Source of the DNA: Malacoraja senta
Lineage: Eukaryota
Assembly (NCBI GenBank): GCA_038087875.1
Contig: CM075994.1
Location: 5,396,001-5,460,000, forward strand
Direction: 5' to 3'
Length of the DNA: 64,000 bases
A program made the translations under genes and the position numbers. Shown piece by piece: positions 1-63,788 of this stretch. The notes under the pieces were generated by a model, which saw only the letters and a program-made list of their open reading frames with translations, had not been told where the DNA came from and made no database searches. The first letter of the stretch is position 1. The number at the start of each line of letters is the position of its first letter.

Positions 1-2315
1 TGTAGAAGTTAGAGAGAGTCCTCCTTGACAAACCGACTCTCCGTAATCTTCTCAGGAAGTAGAGGCGCTGATGAGCTTTCTTGATAATTGCATTAGTGTT
101 CTCGGACCAGGAAAGATCTTCAGAAATGTGCACCCCCAGGAATTTGAAGCTCTTGACCCTTTCAACCATCGACCCGTTGATATAAACGGAACTGTGGGTC
201 CCCATCCTTCCAAAGTCCACAATCAGTTCCTTGTTTTTTCTGGTGTTGAGGGCCAGGTTGTTGTGCTGGCACCATATGGACAGTTGCTGGATCTCTCTTC
301 TATACTCTGACTCATCCCCATCAGTGATACGTCCCACCACAGTGGTGTCGCCAGCGAACTTGATGATGGAGTTCGCACTGTGACGGGCTACGCAGTCATG
401 AATATAGGGTGCGTACAGCAGGGGGCTTAGCACGCAGCCTTGAGGTGCTCCCGTGTTGATTGTTATCGAGGCTGACAGATTTCCACCAATACGAACAGAC
501 TGTGGTATGTGAATGAGGAAGTTGAGGATCCAATTGCAGAGGGATGCGCAGAGACACAGTTCTGCGAGTTTGGTAAGCAGCTTGGAGGGGATGATTGTGT
601 TAAATGCCGAGCTGTAATCGATGAATAACAGCCTGACAGATGAGTTGTTGTTGTCCAAGTTGTGCAGGGCGGAGTGGAGGGCCAGCGAGATCGCATCCAC
701 CGTTGATCTGGTGTGGCGGTGACCGAACTGCAGTGGGTCCATGTTTTTGTCGGAGTAAGAGTTGATTTGCTCCATGATCAACCTCTCAAAGCATTTCATC
801 ATCACGGGCGTTAGTGCCACACGTCGATAGTCATTGGGGCACGTCACCTTCCTCTTCTTGGGCACTGGTATAATTGATGCGCTTTTAAAGCAGGTGGGGA
901 CCTCAGCACTCAGAAGTGTGAGGTTGAAAATGTCCGTAACGACTCCAGCTAGTTGGTCTGCACAAGTTTTTAGAACACGACCGGGTATACCATCAGGTGC
1001 AGGCGCTTTTCGAGGGTTCACCACTCTGAAGGATTTCCTGACGTCGGCCTCTGTGACTGAGACCGAAATACCATCACAGCGAATGGGGGCTCGGGAAGGC
1101 ACATCAGTGTTCTCCCTATCAAAGCGTGCGTAAAACGCATTGAGCTTATCAGGGAGTGATGTTTCGCCGACATTCGAGCTGCCTCCAGGTTTCGCCTTGT
1201 AGGTGGTGATTGCATTCAGGCCCAGCCACAGGTTCCGAACATCAGTATCAACCTCCAGTTTGGAGCAGAAGTCCATTTTGGCCTTTTTGATGGCCTTACC
1301 AAGGTCGTATCTGGACTTCATGTAGGGCACTGTATCATCAGACTTGAATGCCCGGTGTCTGGACTTCAGAAGAGTGCGGATCTCAAAGTTCATCCAAGGT
1401 TTCTGATTGGGAAACGCTCGGAAGATTTTGTTGTGGAGGCAGTCCTCCACACACTACTTAATGAAGTCTGTAACGACTGTAGCGTATTCGTTCAGGTCCG
1501 TTGCCGAGTCCTTGAACATTGCCCAGTCTACAGACTCCAAACAGTCCTGGAGTAGTTCCTCTGCCCCCCCCCCCCTGACCAGCTCTGTACTGTCCTCACC
1601 TCTGGGGTGCGCTCTTTAATTGCTGCTTGTAGGCAGGAAGAAGCAGCACCGCGGTATGGTCGGATTTGCCGAAGTGAGGGCGAGGGATAGAGCGATAGGC
1701 ATTCTTGATGGTGGTGTAGCAGTGGTCCAGGGTGTTTGGTCCTCTGGTGCAGCAGGAGACATGTTGGCGGAAGTTAGGGCGTGATTTCTTTAGATTTGCT
1801 TTATTGAAGTCTCCGGCTATGGTGGTGAACGCCTCGGGGTAATAAGTCTGGTGTCTGTTGACCACGGCGTGCAGCTCCTCCAGTGCCAGACGGACGTCTG
1901 CCTGGGGTGGGATGTAGACCGCAGTTAGGATGATGTAGGCGAATTCCCGTGGGAGGTAGAAGGGACGACACTTCACTGCCAGATGTTCGAGGTGTGGAGA
2001 GCAGGATTTGGAAAGGACTGCCACGTCTGAGCAGCACGCAGAGTTGACCATGAGGCAGACGCTCCCTACTCTCCCTTTCCCAGTTGCCAGTGTACGGTCC
2101 ATACGGTGGTTGGAGAAACCTTCAGGCTGGACCGCTGAGTCTGGGGAGCTTGGGGTGAGCCATGTCTCTGTAAAACAGAACACAGAGCATTCCCTCGGCT
2201 CCCTTTCATAAAGCAGCCTTGCCCTTACGTCCTCCACTTTATTTTCAAGGGATTGTACGTTGGCCAGTAGGATAGTAGGGAGACAGGGTCGAAGTTCCCC
2301 TGCGCTTCAGTCTGC
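1..2315 (-). mobile_element. Rex1/Babar-type LINE (APE endonuclease + RT), frameshifted, continues beyond window start
   Basis: ORF 1596-2237 has APE motifs (CFTETWL, AVYIPP, AGDFN, TLDHCY, SDH); RT remnants toward position 1 encode GAPQGCVL and FADDTTVV. Confidence 0.9.
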
Positions 2316-2339: not shown

Positions 2340-4062
2340 ACCTTTAAGTATGTCTCTTACCGGACCAAACCCACCTACCTCGGGGTTTGCCGATGGCAAA
2401 TGTTTCCCCTACTTTCAGTGGGAATACTGTAACCTCCACGCATCCCAGGAGCAGTGCGCCAATAACGCGTGTATGGGAAAGATCGACTTGTTCCTTCTCC
2501 AGCCCCAGACATCCGTCGGTAGCGATACTGCCTTCGAATTCATCTCCTAAGCACCGGTGGTTTCATCATTCCCACGGTTTTTGCTTCTTCATTCAGGTCC
2601 TTTACCATTTTGGCTAGATTCTCTCCAAAAAGCAGATAAGGCATTTGAATATTAGATGGTTTACAGAGCCCCGCAAACGTAGGGTGAATATTAGGTCTTA
2701 TGGCACTTTTACGAATACTGTTTATTTCAAAGTGCGCACTACACATGAGTGCTAAGGCATCCTGTTGTGAAGCAGACACATGGTCCTCATTCAAACCTCT
2801 GGCGAAAGCCGTAAGGCCTGACCCCAGCAATTCAACACTCGTTGTAATTTCAATTCTTGTGTTCGTACTCCAATACACAAATAGCCCCATATCACGTTAT
2901 TCACCGCTGGGACTGCTAGCAGTGCACAATTCTGCGGGGTTTCATAATTTTTGACAGTCTCATCCATGGTTAATTCCTGGAGCTGATGGGAGAGCAAATA
3001 ATTTATAGTCATTGCTAATTCATCTCCAAAAGGTTCCCCTGTTAATCTGGGAACAGCAAACTTTTGTGCCAGTCCTGGTATTTTAGGCTCTGTTATTGGG
3101 CTCTGGTCCTCATATGATTCATCACCTGAATCTTGATGTTCCTCCTCATGATGGGGGAGTTCTGGCATCCCTGTTCAGGTGATTCTAGCACTGGCTCTTC
3201 CATAGGCCTAAGCATAGTAAATTCTTTACCAGATTCTCCCCGCGCGGGCTCTCCTGTAGGCCCACGCATAGGCAGCCCTATTTCAGGTGCTGCTGGCGCT
3301 GGCTACCCTGTAGGCCAACGCTTATACTGTCTTCCATCAGACATTGTTGGCGCTGGCACTCATTTAGACCTACGCTTATACTGCCTTTTTTCAGGCATTT
3401 CTGGCACTGGCTCACCTGTAGGCCAACACATATACTGTCTTTTTTCAGACATTTCTGGCGGTGGCTCTCCTGTAGGCCAACGCTGTGCCTGACCCATCCA
3501 AGGCACACCCTGCGCTGTCTCTCCCATAGGCCAACGCGGACTGTATTCCTCCTGATGTGGTTCTTGATATATCATAATCCCCATGAGGAATTCTAGACTA
3601 TCGAGCAGCCATAACTTCTGACTGAGGAAGATTAACCTCCGGGGCTGATTCCTCAGAGTCTACTGGTCGCACGCACTTTTGTACGGCCTTGCGCCTCAAT
3701 GGCACTGTAACGGTACTTTCTACCGCATCTGGAGTGATGGCCTTGCTGCCACCGACTGCTCTAACGGACGCCCGCTACCCTCAGACCCGCGGTCTTCTTG
3801 AGGTTTACCTGCGGTACGTCTTCTCCAACTACACCCTCTCTCCATACTAACTTATGTGGAACTCCACTACAAGTCTATCGAGAAAGGCGACCTGAAAGCG
3901 AAAGTGAAAGCACTTACCTTCAGGCTTTTACTTATTCACCGCTTGGAGGAGCTTTGCTCCTCCACACATTGTCGTTGCGCTATGCGTCTGATGATATGGA
4001 CGCGTGTGCGGCTGGACGGGCTCTTCTTCACGTAGTGACTCACGTGACTCCGAAGTAAAATT
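2340..4062 (-). mobile_element. DIRS-like tyrosine-recombinase retrotransposon, 5' part (terminal repeat + broken gag)
   Basis: ORFs 2791-3168 and 2540-2890 resemble DIRS gag (AVPAVNNVIW, DALALM, LLFGENL); terminus reads ATTTTACTTCGGAGTCACGTGAGTCACTACGTG on the minus strand. Confidence 0.7.
3301..3483. repeat. 54-bp tandem repeat, about 3.4 units, inside the DIRS gag region
   Basis: Units begin at 3301, 3355, 3409 and 3463; minus strand reads WPTGEPxPEMxEKRQY. Confidence 0.9.
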
Positions 4063-11118: not shown

Positions 11119-12168
11119 GCTTCATCATCAGAGCGACATATGACGTTTCCATCACCAAAGAACCTCCATCAGTGGTACGGTGAGGATCCAACCTGTGCCA
11201 TCTGCCCAACTCCAGCGACCCTCAAACACATCATGGTAGGCTGCAAGACCAGCCTCACGCAAGGGAGATACACGTGGCGGCATAATCAGGAACTAAAAAG
11301 CCTGGCATCAGCCCTTGAGAACAGGCGGTGTGCGACCAACTCCTTGTCTCCGAGAGCAAGCAACCCCCCTCCCCTAAGGGTAATAACCTTTGTCCGAGGA
11401 ACAGAAAACTTCTAAACTTCCTTCCACCAGATCAGAAGAAGGAAGCCAATGCAGGGCCCGTGACTGGAGGATGCTGGCGGACATCGGCCGACAACTAATT
11501 TTTCCACCTGAAATTGCTTCCACCACCCTCAGGCCAGACTTGATGTTCTGGTCCCCTTCACAGAAGACTGCTTACATCATAGAGCTCACAGTTCCATGGG
11601 AGAACTCTGTAGAGGAGGCCTATGAGCGTAAGAAGCTGCGCTACGCAGAGCTTGCAGCAGAGGCAACGCAGCGTGGCTGGAACACCAAAGTCTATCCAGT
11701 TGAAGTGGGATGCAGAGGATTTGTTGCGTCATCTACCATCAGAATGCTGAAGGAGCTTGGAATCCACGGTCAGCCTCTGCGGAAGACCATAAGATCACTC
11801 TCAGAGGCGGCTGAAAGAAGCAGCCGGTGGATTTGGCTCAAGCTGAAAGACCCATGCTGGGCCCCAAGTATGTCGGGGTGAATCTTTGGGACGGTTGGAC
11901 ACGGGACATGCGCCGAGGGTTGATCATCCTGCAGCGGGCCGCCCTTCTGGAGGGTGTATAGTGTTAAAAGGCCGAAACACCCAGTGATGCAAGGGTACAC
12001 TACTGATGATGTGTCCTGTGCCCAACTGTCCTGAAGGTTCCCCCCCCACCCCCCCCCCCCCCCCGATGTTGAGCGTCTACCACTCTCAACAATCAACGAA
12101 TGTCGTGAAATGCTCCCCACCTATTGGCACAAGGACTTCTTAACATCATGTCCTGTGTATTTGATTCT
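11119..12168 (+). mobile_element. 5'-truncated Hero-clade non-LTR element (CCHC + restriction-like endonuclease + 3' UTR)
   Basis: CAICPTPATLKHIMVGC, WRHN, LRPDL, IIELTVPWE, PVEVGCRGF. Confidence 0.9.
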
Positions 12169-15100
12169 GATAATCTGGACTCGTCCAGTGACTGCTGTGA
12201 AAGGACAGCTAACAACATGGGAAAGTCCATGTGACAGCTTGGAGAGACAGCTGACAGGAGGGAACAGACCCCACTGGGGCCGTCATGGGCTAGCTACCCA
12301 TGACAGCAGTCCCAACGCTGTTTCAGCTAGTTGGAGACACCCGCTAAATGCTACTAAAAGTAAAATAAAGAGAATACCCCTAGAGCCTGCGAGAGCGGGG
12401 GCGGAATATGGCTCACCGATTGATAACACGGTTACAGACAAGGAGAGCATGGCACATGAGACATCCACAACAGCTGCGGGACACAAACTTCAGGTGTGCA
12501 TCTGTGGTTGGGAGAAATTAACATCAGTGAAGGGCTTGAAGATCCACCAAGGGAAGAAAAAGTGCTTGAGAGAGCAGAAACATGGGCTTCGCATTGACCA
12601 GTACTTCCTACGAAGCAACCAGTCAAATCAGTCGAGTGAAGCACAGCGACGGGACACAAACCAAAGTTCGCAGAGCATCAGCACCCATGTCACTGAAGAG
12701 GGTGATACAAGCACAGAAATGCCGGTGGAGGAGCCCACGCAACAACTACAAAAACCTCCATTGGAGGGAAAGATCAAAGGGCACAAACCTGGAGTGAAAT
12801 GGCCCAAGGCTGTTGAAAAGAAAGAGTGGGAGACGGTCAACAGTGACCTTATACATATCTTGGAGCAACAAGCGGGCACAGCAGTGGAAAAGCTTGAAAG
12901 GATGGGCAACACAATCTACAGCTATGGAGAAGAACGGTTTGGGGTGAGTAAAGGGAGAGTTGGAAAGAATTACCAACACCAATCAAGTCCAGGAGGCAGC
13001 AGGAGATCGAGAGGCTAATCAGAGAGAGGAGACAGTTGAAAAAGCAATGGAAAAAAGCAACTGACGCAGAGAGAGAAGGTCTCATGCTACTCCAAGAGGA
13101 CATCAAGAACCGATTGGCAACCTTGCAAAAACCAGAGAACTTGAGGAAACTTCGCAAGAAGAAAGAACACACAAGAACACGGTTCTATAAAAACCATTTC
13201 AAGTTCATCAAAGACCTCTTCGCAAAGGAAAAAAGTGGAACTTTGAAAACATCAAAACAGGAATTGGAGGAACACCTGGAAAAGGCCCACAAAGACACGA
13301 AAAGGCATGAGCAGTTGGTCATCCCACATGACATCCCGCCTATTCAACCACCTGAATTCAACATGGACACCAGCCCTCCGAGATGGAAAGAGGTGGAGAA
13401 CACGGTCCGGCGAGCAAGAGCATCATCAGCTCCGGGGCCAAACGGAGTACCATACAAGCTCTATAAGAACGCACCGGATGTGTTACGCTTTCTATGGAAG
13501 CTCATGAGGGTGGTGTGGAAGAAGCAAACAATACCTAAGGCGTGGCGAAGGGCCGGCGGCGTGCTAATACCTAAAGAAAAAGATTCGTCAGACATCAGCC
13601 AATTCCGGCCAATATGTCTCCTCAACGTCGAGGGAAAAATCTTTTTTAGCATTGTATCAAAAAGGCTGTCCACCTATCTGGTTACAAACAAGTACATTGA
13701 TACATCTGTACAGAAAGCAGGAATTCCATGATTTTCGGGCTGCTTGGAGCATACAAGCATGATCTGGCACCAGTTCCAAGCAGCTAAGAAGGACAAGAGA
13801 GACCTACATGTGATCTTCCTCGATCTGGCCAATGCATTTGGTTCAGTTCCCCATGAACTCCTTTGGGAATCTTTTGCCTTTTTCCATGTACCAGAGCTCA
13901 TCACCACACTGGTCAAGAAATATTACCAAGACCTGCAGCTGTGCTTCACAACAGCTGACTTCAGTACAACATGGCAGCGCTTGGAAGTAGGCATCATGGC
14001 AGGCTGCACAGTCTCGCCCTTGGCCTTTACAATGGCCATGGAAGTCATCATCAGGGCCTCAAAATGGGTGGTGGGCGGTGAACGAACCAGGGTTGGGCTC
14101 CGTCTGCCACCCATCAGGGCATACATGGACGACATGACAACACTAACCACTACTGCAGCATGCACCAAGCGGCTACTTGGAAAGCTGCCGGAGAACATCA
14201 AGTGGGCCCGAATGAAAATCAAACCAAGTAAATCTCGAAGCATCTCCATAGTGAAGGGGGTGCTTAGAGACACAAGGTTCCGTATCGGTGATGACCCAAT
14301 ACCAACAGTTTCTGAGCAGCCTGTTAAAAGCCTGGGAAGATGATATAACGCAAGTCTCAAGGACAAAGAGCAGGTGCAACAACTAAGGCAAGAAATTGTC
14401 AATGGACTGGAGAACATCAATCAGACCCTACTGCCTGGGAAACTGAAGCTCTGGTGCCTACAGTTTGGACTCCTTCCTCGGACAATGTGGCCACTGACCG
14501 TTTATGAAGCCCCAATAACAACTGTGGAGAAGATGGAGCGAACCATAACTTCATACGTGAAGAAATGGCTCGGTGTCCCACGATGTCTAATTAACATCGG
14601 CCTCTATGGCAAAGGGGTCCTGGAACTACCTCTCACTAGTCTAACAGAGGAATATAAGTGTTCTAAACTAAGACTCCAGATGACACTGAGGGACTCTAGA
14701 GACAAGATCATCGGTGCTGTTGCGCCGCCCCTAGCAACTGGCCGGAAGTGGACACCATCTGATGCAGTACAGCAAGCTTCATCAGCCCTGAGGCACAAAG
14801 ACATAGTGGGGCAAGTCCAGCAGGGAAGAGGAGGCTTTGGTCTTTTCGACAAGTAAACCAACTTGGCGAAAGGCCACAACTTCAGAGCGGAGGACGTTGG
14901 TGGTTGTGGAGGTGCGGCTACAGGAGGAGGCCGCAAGAAGTGCAAAGGTGGTCTCTCTTGCCAAGNNNNNNNNNNNNNNNNNNNNNNNNNNNNNNNNNNN
15001 NNNNNNNNNNNNNNNNNNNNNNNNNNNNNNNNNNNNNNNNNNNNNNNNNNNNNNNNNNNNNNNNNNNNNNNNNNNNNNNNNNNNNNNNNNNNNNNNNNNN

Positions 15101-16035
15101 NNNNNNNNNNNNNNNNNNNNNNNNNNNNNNNNNNNNNNNNNNNNNNNNNNNNNNNNNNNNNNNNNAAAAAAGCCTGGCATCAGCCCTCGAGAACAGGCGG
15201 TGTGCGACCAACTCCTTGCCTCCGAGAGCAAGCAACCCTCCCCTAAGGGTAATAACCTTTGTCCGAGAAGGACAGAAAACTTCTAAATTTCCTTCCACAT
15301 ATCAGGAAGAAGGAAGCCAATGCAGGGCCCGTGACTGGAGGATGCTGGCGGACATCGGCCGAACAACTAATTTTTCCACCTGAAATTGCTTCCACCACCC
15401 TCAGGCCAGACTTGGTGTTTTGGTCCCCTTCACAGAAGACGCTTACATCATGGAGCTCACAGTTCCATGGGAGAACTCTGTTGAGGAGGCCTATGAGCGT
15501 AAGAAGCTGCGCTACGCAGAGCTTGCAGCAGAGGCAACGCAGCGTGGCTGGAACACCAATGTCTATCCAGTTGAAGTGGGATGCAGAGGATTTGTTGCGG
15601 CATCTACCATCAGACTGCTGAAGGAGCTTGGAATCCACGGTCAGCCTCTGCGGAAGACCATAAGATCACTCTCAGAGGCGGCTGAAAGAAGCAGCCGGTG
15701 GATTTGGCTCAAGCGGAAAGACCCATTCGGGGCCCCAAGTATGTCGGGGTGAATCTTTGGGACGGTTTGACACGGGACATGCGCTGAGGGTTGATCATCC
15801 TGCAGCGGGCCGCCCTTGTGGAGGGTGATATTGTTAAAAGGCCGAAACACCCATTGATGCAAGGGTACACTACTGATGATGTGTCCTGTGCCCAACTGTG
15901 CTGAAGGTTACCCCCCCCACCCCCCCCCCGATGTTGAGCGTCTACCACTCTCAACAATCAACGAATGTCGTGAAATGCTCCCCACCTATTGGCACAAGGG
16001 AACTTCTTAACATCTTGTCCTGTGTATTTGATTCT
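12169..16035 (+). mobile_element. near full-length, defective Hero-clade non-LTR retrotransposon (zinc finger, RT, RLE)
   Basis: N-terminal CICG...H...C finger; RT motifs LDLANAFGSVPH, GIMAGC, YMDD; RLE after the gap; TGA stops at 13729-31 and 14341-43 plus frameshifts. Confidence 0.92.
14966..15165. other. assembly gap (200 N)
   Basis: Run of N. Confidence 1.

Positions 16036-20478: not shown

Positions 20479-63788
<43,310 letters not shown>

Follow-up and report, generated by a model that had tools for sequence, protein, structure and literature searches.

A hammerhead-like RNA fold with an interrupted core, likely catalytic, in the 3′ UTR of tandemly arrayed animal LINEs

Elements of the HERO clade, such as Zebulon of Tetraodon, carry a single open reading frame (ORF) with a reverse transcriptase (RT), a CCHC knuckle and a motif of the restriction-like endonuclease (RLE) type, end without a tail and occur in tandem arrays. 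HERO is named as a clade in PMC7650587, and no ribozyme was linked to it in the literature searched. Among other retroelements, R2 and L1Tc bear self-cleaving HDV-like ribozymes at their 5′ end, where the cut is the element boundary (PMC6765202); Penelope-like elements, which are autonomous, of the GIY-YIG kind and found in tandem copies, bear hammerheads of minimal type I topology with a palindrome in helix III that suggests dimers (PMC4209133); and metazoan non-LTR retrozymes (Cervera and de la Pena 2020, PMC7229834; bioRxiv 10.64898/2026.07.22.740005) are non-coding, Penelope-linked tandem units with one type I hammerhead each, for which cutting, closure by RtcB and a circular template have been proposed. 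The closest described fold is the type-SGC hammerhead HRIMA-1 (Eckert et al. 2023, PMC10085705), which has its blocks in the order S-G-C, a short linker between stems I and II, a bracing helix at the far ends of these stems and a full core; the motifs of that study came from metatranscriptomes and metagenomes and, with the exception of one GCS candidate, not from known genomes. Eckert et al. assumed a break between A9 and G10.1 to be impossible, because known alignments show at most one or two bases there (PMC10085705). Our searches returned only Eckert et al. for type SGC and only R2 work for hammerheads combined with restriction-like endonucleases.

Here we describe a fold with such a break, encoded on the coding strand of a LINE immediately 3′ of its stop codon, in a 64,000-nucleotide stretch of Malacoraja senta DNA (the window; Table 1). 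The LINE is a tandem, single-ORF, RLE-type element. Its intact unit measures 3954 bp, with one ORF of 1181 amino acids that contains an RVT_1 domain and has R2 proteins as its best solved relatives; protein relatives occur in fish, lamprey, lancelets and bivalves, among others. The ORF also reads RPDL...ELTVPWE and a CCHC pattern, which we take to be a restriction-like endonuclease motif and a zinc knuckle; on that reading it combines the RT, zinc knuckle and restriction-like endonuclease that characterize HERO. We presume the element to be HERO-like, the name given in the original prediction: its features match those described for HERO and Zebulon. In the window, a further copy of the motif, absent from the original prediction, lies in the downstream unit (at about 15752-15908, or about 15805-15882 in a narrower delimitation, with a damaged cut site).

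Table 1. Features of the tandem LINE locus and of a decayed non-coding relative (positions in the window).
Feature	Position	Strand	Remarks
5′-truncated upstream LINE copy	11295..12167	+	End of ORF with RLE nuclease region, stop codon 11879-11881, 3′ UTR
P0 5′ strand, long closing helix	11882..11909	+	Begins right behind the stop codon; 27 of 28 pairs form with 12011-12038
Px hairpin	11911..11935	+	Apex holds UGAUCA (palindrome, 11921-11926), which may serve as a kissing loop
Relocated stem II, 10.x strand	11937..11940	+	G10.1 = 11937, pairs with C11.1 = 11973
P4 5′ strand	11941..11946	+	Counterpart of the type-SGC stem I-II interaction helix; 6 of 6 pair here
Kink-turn GA, non-bulged strand	11950..11951	+	Pattern in 34 of 42 relatives
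Block S	11952..11964	+	Stem III 5′ strand, GUA, predicted cut 11958/11959, stem I 5′ strand
Block G	11970..11982	+	Stem II 3′ strand, G12 A13 A14 A15.1, stem III 3′ strand
Kink-turn 3-base bulge and GA	11983..11987	+	Pattern test in relatives
P4 3′ strand	11991..11996	+	Covariation; pairing at the window copy
Stem I 3′ strand and CUGAUGA	11997..12009	+	C3 = 12003, A9 = 12009
P0 3′ strand	12011..12038	+	Pairs with 11882-11909
Tail-to-head junction of tandem units	12163..12175	+	Boundary 12167/12168
Downstream full-length unit	12168..16035	+	ORF broken (stops, frameshifts); contains an N gap
Decayed piece of non-coding family	52505..52752	+	G10.1 52530, predicted cut after 52551, CUGAGGA 52597

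To assess the fold in relatives of the LINE, we searched with a C-terminal protein profile and took the 80 best among 400 metagenome loci, together with 2 loci from genome contigs (44-85% identity). Of the 72 loci that extend 200 nt or more past the ORF, 52 carry a loose GAAA...CTGAnGA pattern behind it. A four-helix parser could place 59 of the 82 loci (17 long and 6 short loci stayed unparsed), and a sequence-only profile matched 70 of the 82 at E values up to 1, a few of them weakly. Eight of the 72 long-enough relatives gave no match to this profile (L146, L150, L095, L100, L110, L123, L145 and L151), so the motif is common but not universal; two of these, L146 and L150, have head-like sequence downstream despite the missing match and may therefore be tandem with another processing signal. 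Two of the loci came from prokaryotic assemblies (L161, with the full motif, and L162), on short contigs that are probably animal contamination.

The covariation set comprised the parsed loci, the window copy and one copy of a non-coding family (see below), of which 42 sequences were kept below 85% identity and 19 near-duplicates dropped; these were aligned by sequence alone, with rows and ends chosen by the parser and three rows corrected by hand. Across the 42 divergent sequences, pairing holds in 91.4% of the 939 cells, and both partners vary in 20 of the 23 pairs, in keeping with the covarying, multiply pseudoknotted, hammerhead-like 3′ UTR fold of the original prediction, and controls with slid partners pair at 35.9-44.5%. 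No alignment shuffle among 500 reached the observed percentage paired or covariation score (12 of the 500 reached the pair count), and the observed parse score was never reached in 4200 shuffles that left the core words in place. As a further control we used 119 viral loci that contain the same words by a loose pattern and were rejected as true copies, being chance matches by parse score: none reached the lowest true score of 41 (highest, 32). Viral contigs held no motif by the strict pattern and no relative by protein search. The Rfam scan of the window returned only microsatellite-driven miRNA noise and that of 10 relative loci no hammerhead match; the fold had been proposed to be undescribed, and neither Rfam nor the literature searched offered a counterpart (the available portions of PMC13725137 and PMC6765202 do not describe it, and that of PMC6765202 makes no mention of HERO). 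A third family, seen in RNA reads, carries further compensatory changes in P4 and stem I.

Stems I and III pair in 97.5% and 94.8% of cells, with 5 of 5 and 4 of 6 pairs changing on both sides, and all seven pairs of P4 covary. Contrary to the initial view that a normal stem II is absent, this stem is formed by the two GGCC words at 11937-40 and 11970-73, with its first strand drawn from upstream and with G10.1-C11.1 as its closing pair; 4 of its 5 pairs covary, and 10.1-11.1, before GAAA, is G-C in 32 and G-U in 5 of the 42 sequences. A conventional stem II, with its strand after CUGAnGA, was considered and rejected: it pairs at chance level (47% versus 44%), with no pair in 57 of 61 loci and two pairs in the other 4, and just 3 of the 42 sequences allow a pair between 11.1 and the base that follows A9. 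The remaining words of the original prediction are likewise in place (CCCTT 11942/AAGGG 11991, GGGTGT 11952/ACACCC 11977, TAGTGT 11959/ACACTA 11997, CTGATGA 12003 and GAAAC 11974), as is GGACAC 11897/GTGTCC 12011, which does pair but proved to be an off-register part of the longer P0 helix; the whole structure, at 11882-12038, is larger than first reported.

The elements run in the order stem II 10.x strand, P4, stem III-UH-stem I, stem II-GAAA-stem III, P4′ and stem I-CUGAnGA, and A9 and G10.1 are unlinked, with P0 departing from A9 and Px leading into G10.1. The helices cross, as had been noticed, and do not form the nested three-way junction of types I, II and III. With type SGC (PMC10085705) the fold shares the features listed above, yet here block C is interrupted, the 10.x strand precedes block S, the A9|G10.1 step is occupied by two helices, a kink-turn pattern is present between stem III and the bracing helix and the carriers are animal LINEs; we do not file it as type SGC, because block C (CUGAnGA and then the stem II strand) is not intact. 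Covariation shows stems I, II and III together with P4 and P0, the pattern of the kink-turn, and blocks in the order 10.x-S-G-CUGAnGA. The original prediction did not include the relation to type SGC, nor the kink-turn, the hairpin with its palindrome or the tandem arrangement.

In 41 of the 42 relatives, P0 starts one or two positions past A9; it has a median of 10 contiguous pairs, with at least 7 in 30 of 41, versus 14% of 1620 cross-pairings. A permissive test, run with no control, placed the end of a hairpin within 2 nt of G10.1 in all 42 sequences. The apex of Px is a palindrome of at least 6 nt in 27 of 42 (shuffle mean 5.1, maximum 14), namely UGAUCA in 17, GACGUC in 4, UGGCCA in 4, UGUACA in 1 and UCAUGA in 1; because related rows share palindromes, the number of different palindromes outweighs these totals. 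A GACG-like tetraloop sits at the apex in 11 of 42. Palindromic kissing loops drive retroviral dimers. Between stem III and P4, a kink-turn sequence pattern (C-stem, 3-base bulge, tandem G-A/A-G and NC stem) occurs in 34 of 42, with L3 being U in 23 of these 34 (2000 shuffles: mean 0.95, maximum 5); judged by this pattern, stem III would connect to the stem I-II pseudoknot through a kink-turn. A compact subgroup (L104, L143, L149, L156 and L157) has no kink-turn, and in it P4′ follows directly behind stem III and the opposite linker is longer. P0 and Px would stack as a four-way junction that keeps A9 beside G10.1 and leaves the active site whole.

The core of the 42 sequences is invariant at U4, G5, A6, A9, A13, A14, A15.1, U16.1 and G16.2-C15.2, with G8 and G12 kept in 41 and C3 in 40 and N7 taking all four bases, a conservation partly imposed by the parser, which required the CUGAnGA, GAAA and UH words. 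Position 17, at which G was allowed, is U in 23, C in 23, A in 14 and G in none of 60 parsed loci, and the 3-8 pair is C-G in 58, U-A in 2, U-G in 1 and C-A in none of 61. The U3-A8 pair is confined to one family and so represents one event; it is a natural covariation of the hammerhead core (PMC4209133), and a conserved extra base between 9 and 10.1 is reported in the same study. Both features are shared with the Penelope-like hammerheads, as are the autonomous carrier, the tandem copies and the palindromes, whereas the topology, the place of the palindrome and the class of element differ (PMC4209133). The original prediction had offered a ribozyme-like fold or an RT-recognition element; the pattern of conservation favours catalysis, and the two roles are not mutually exclusive. 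We consider it probable, from this pattern, that the RNA cleaves under some condition, and the predicted site, after 11958, is placed by analogy with hammerheads. RNA reads of a related organism gave a depth of about 50-140 across the site and no pile-up of ends (4 runs, 1-5% of each), a weak test because the reads derive mostly from decayed copies of 85-95% identity in oligo-dT libraries. Short reads from such libraries would look the same whether they came from circles or from tandem transcripts. After a cut, stems II, III, P4 and P0 clamp both halves, so release needs strand exchange.

The genome holds 435 copies that match exactly across the cut and 142 exact matches to the start of the unit. 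Among the first 30 unit starts, 28 follow at least 71 nt of element tail, with neither insertion nor deletion at the junction (two have a substitution), and the other 2 begin within 7 nt of the junction. The pieces upstream run through the cut in 20 of 30 cases, start at the cut in 1 and are shorter in 9. A genome-wide pattern search, which detects only part of such cases, gave a single copy with its start no more than 4 nt from the cut, and a control window for starts gave 2 matches, 1 of them a truncation; this near-absence of starts at the cut fits a circle and equally fits an RNA that never cleaves. All of 45 copies sampled regardless of cut site are intact at the cut. Seamless junctions together with intact cut sites imply a template that includes the junction and is whole at the cut.

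The 3′ ends of the LINE are sharp, without a tail, fixed 205 nt past the predicted cut and read GATTC or GATTCT in 33 of 40 cases. Compared by eye with the next unit, 40 ends showed no match above chance beyond one T (11, 22, 4, 1, 1 and 1 ends with matches of 0-5 bases). Within 9 arrays, units differ at 18 of 12,360 sites (0.15%), and between arrays at 1269 of 264,195 (0.48%), with one array having 8 alleles in common that are absent from all others; linear tandem transcripts, gene conversion or assembly polishing can also explain the identity within arrays. In distant relatives, head-like sequence lies 3′ of the tail at 12 of 82 loci. An excess of second-round truncations, which the circle model leads one to expect from strand displacement, was unsupported (12 of 25 terminal copies versus 7 of 20 upstream pieces reach the locus edge), and a pile-up of three starts near unit position 3787 was dropped, the genome-wide pattern having left it unconfirmed. 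The head of the unit (12168-12300 and, in the non-coding family, 52643-52752) contains short repeated purine-rich words (GGAAAG, GGAGAGACAG), common to both families and distant relatives, as a candidate internal promoter or protein-binding site.

The same motif occurs in a non-coding family with tandem units of 526-535 bp joined tail to head, from whose 987 first-look candidates 30 copies were read, 2 of the 30 loci having two motifs in tandem. At the decayed window piece, which has lost the P0 5′ strand and continues into the head of the next unit, all nine words listed for the copy at 52530 and GAAAC were found. The mismatches noted there in three stems exist but are private decay: the majority of the 30 family copies pairs perfectly, restoring all three and supplying a closing helix of 11 pairs. 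The distance from the cut to the 3′ end differs between the families (205 versus 91 nt). This 535-bp family resembles a metazoan non-LTR retrozyme, but its topology is not type I.

Of the explanations considered, a circular RNA template fits the genomic evidence best. Cleavage after 11958 would, on this reading, be followed by circularization of the cut-to-cut RNA, which RT would copy more than once round, a sequence of events whose chances we regard as evenly balanced. Read-through of a locus with two motifs would yield unit-length RNA by cutting at both, and this RNA may be sealed by the reverse reaction of the ribozyme or by RtcB, as in retrozymes, for which a circular template has precedent (PMC7229834). 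Target-primed reverse transcription would then begin internally at GAUUC(U) and run round past its own start; the products would be [truncated][full] arrays, and arrays with two motifs could become the next masters. Such a template would explain the seamless head-to-tail genomic copies, and an internally primed circle unites in one model the conservation of the core, the seamless join between units, the copies longer than one unit and the absence of a pile-up. Here, in comparison with retrozymes, the carrier is a protein-coding RLE LINE together with its own non-coding family. More speculatively, palindromic Px loops may kiss, bringing two cut ends together so that half-ribozymes swap partners. 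The full proposal, that a widespread protein-coding LINE clade replicates via circular RNA from a four-way-junction hammerhead, with a kissing hairpin pairing the motifs, the halves swapping, the circle being sealed and a retrozyme-like non-coding family parasitizing the signal, is put forward tentatively, as possible rather than expected.

The same conservation of the core, the palindromic loops in 27 of 42 and the lack of read ends at the cut would also suit a slow or dimer-gated ribozyme on linear RNA, in which the templates would be uncut concatemers or a kissing RNA pair with precise RT jumps, and cleavage would trim or destroy surplus. Penelope-like elements and amphibian retrozymes provide known cases of hammerheads that depend on dimers (PMC4209133, PMC7229834), and the 2 of 30 units that begin no more than 7 nt from the junction agree with this explanation too. 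However, the RT jumps must then be error-free at 28 of 28 junctions and succeed in about 93% of cases, linear concatemers could presumably only shorten over generations, and it is not clear what a linear RNA would gain from a cut that takes away its RT start site; we hold this explanation to be rather unlikely.

We regard as unlikely, too, a scaffold that does not cleave, in which a kink-turned, hammerhead-shaped fold binds or positions the element protein and sets the RT start 90-205 nt downstream. Its location in the 3′ UTR resembles that of R2 protein-binding RNAs, the sharp 3′ ends, the intactness of all sampled copies and the retention of the fold by the non-coding family are consistent with it, and a core broken at A9|G10.1 has no precedent in the available text of PMC10085705. 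Protein binding alone, however, needs no full catalytic set, free N7, absent G17 or 3-8 pair across proteins of 44-85% identity, and the distance to the 3′ end varies among families (205 and 91 nt). As for 5′ trimming as in R2 and Penelope, in which a motif in the upstream tail would free the element from a host transcript and set its 5′ end, it is largely excluded as the main route and highly improbable, since 20 of 30 upstream pieces reach past the cut and the one start at the cut compares with one true truncation in the control window, even though ribozymes have a known role in non-LTR elements (PMC6765202) and one array does begin within 4 nt of the cut. The R2 and L1Tc ribozymes, which like the motif here sit in an RLE or other LINE, have another fold; the predicted cut here is internal to the 3′ UTR.

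Taken as a new topological variant of the hammerhead, the fold is real as a structure, likely catalytic by its sequence conservation and possibly a sign of a new replication route for LINEs. It contradicts the stated rule against any interruption of the CUGAnGA block and adds a topology beyond the six proposed, one that existing descriptors and Rfam missed despite hundreds of copies in the genome. If it cleaves, helices can be inserted into the core itself, which would be useful for switch design. Should the circular template hold, an autonomous LINE would use a viroid-like or retrozyme-like RNA circle with internal priming, the tandem arrays would be explained, retrozyme-like units would gain a non-Penelope partner, and the result would bear on RLE retrotransposons as gene-insertion tools.

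Upstream of the hammerhead, some 3′ UTRs of the relatives carry another conserved motif that resembles a pseudoknot (L081:1919-1987, L082, L086:870-937, L091:1865-1934 and L108:1880-1948), with the pairings UAUGCG/UGCAUA, CAGGG/CCCUG and GGAC/GUCC plus a variable hairpin. This motif is absent from the window and had no Rfam match in the four loci scanned; it is possibly a protein-binding element or another ribozyme. Elsewhere in the window, 1-2306 (minus strand) and 53323-56652 hold endonuclease-RT LINE fragments with long low-complexity G/A-rich tracts, and an LTR retrotransposon at 22172-25865 has an RT-RNase H-integrase frame of 1048 amino acids and two direct repeats of 204 nt that are 100% identical, so it is probably young.
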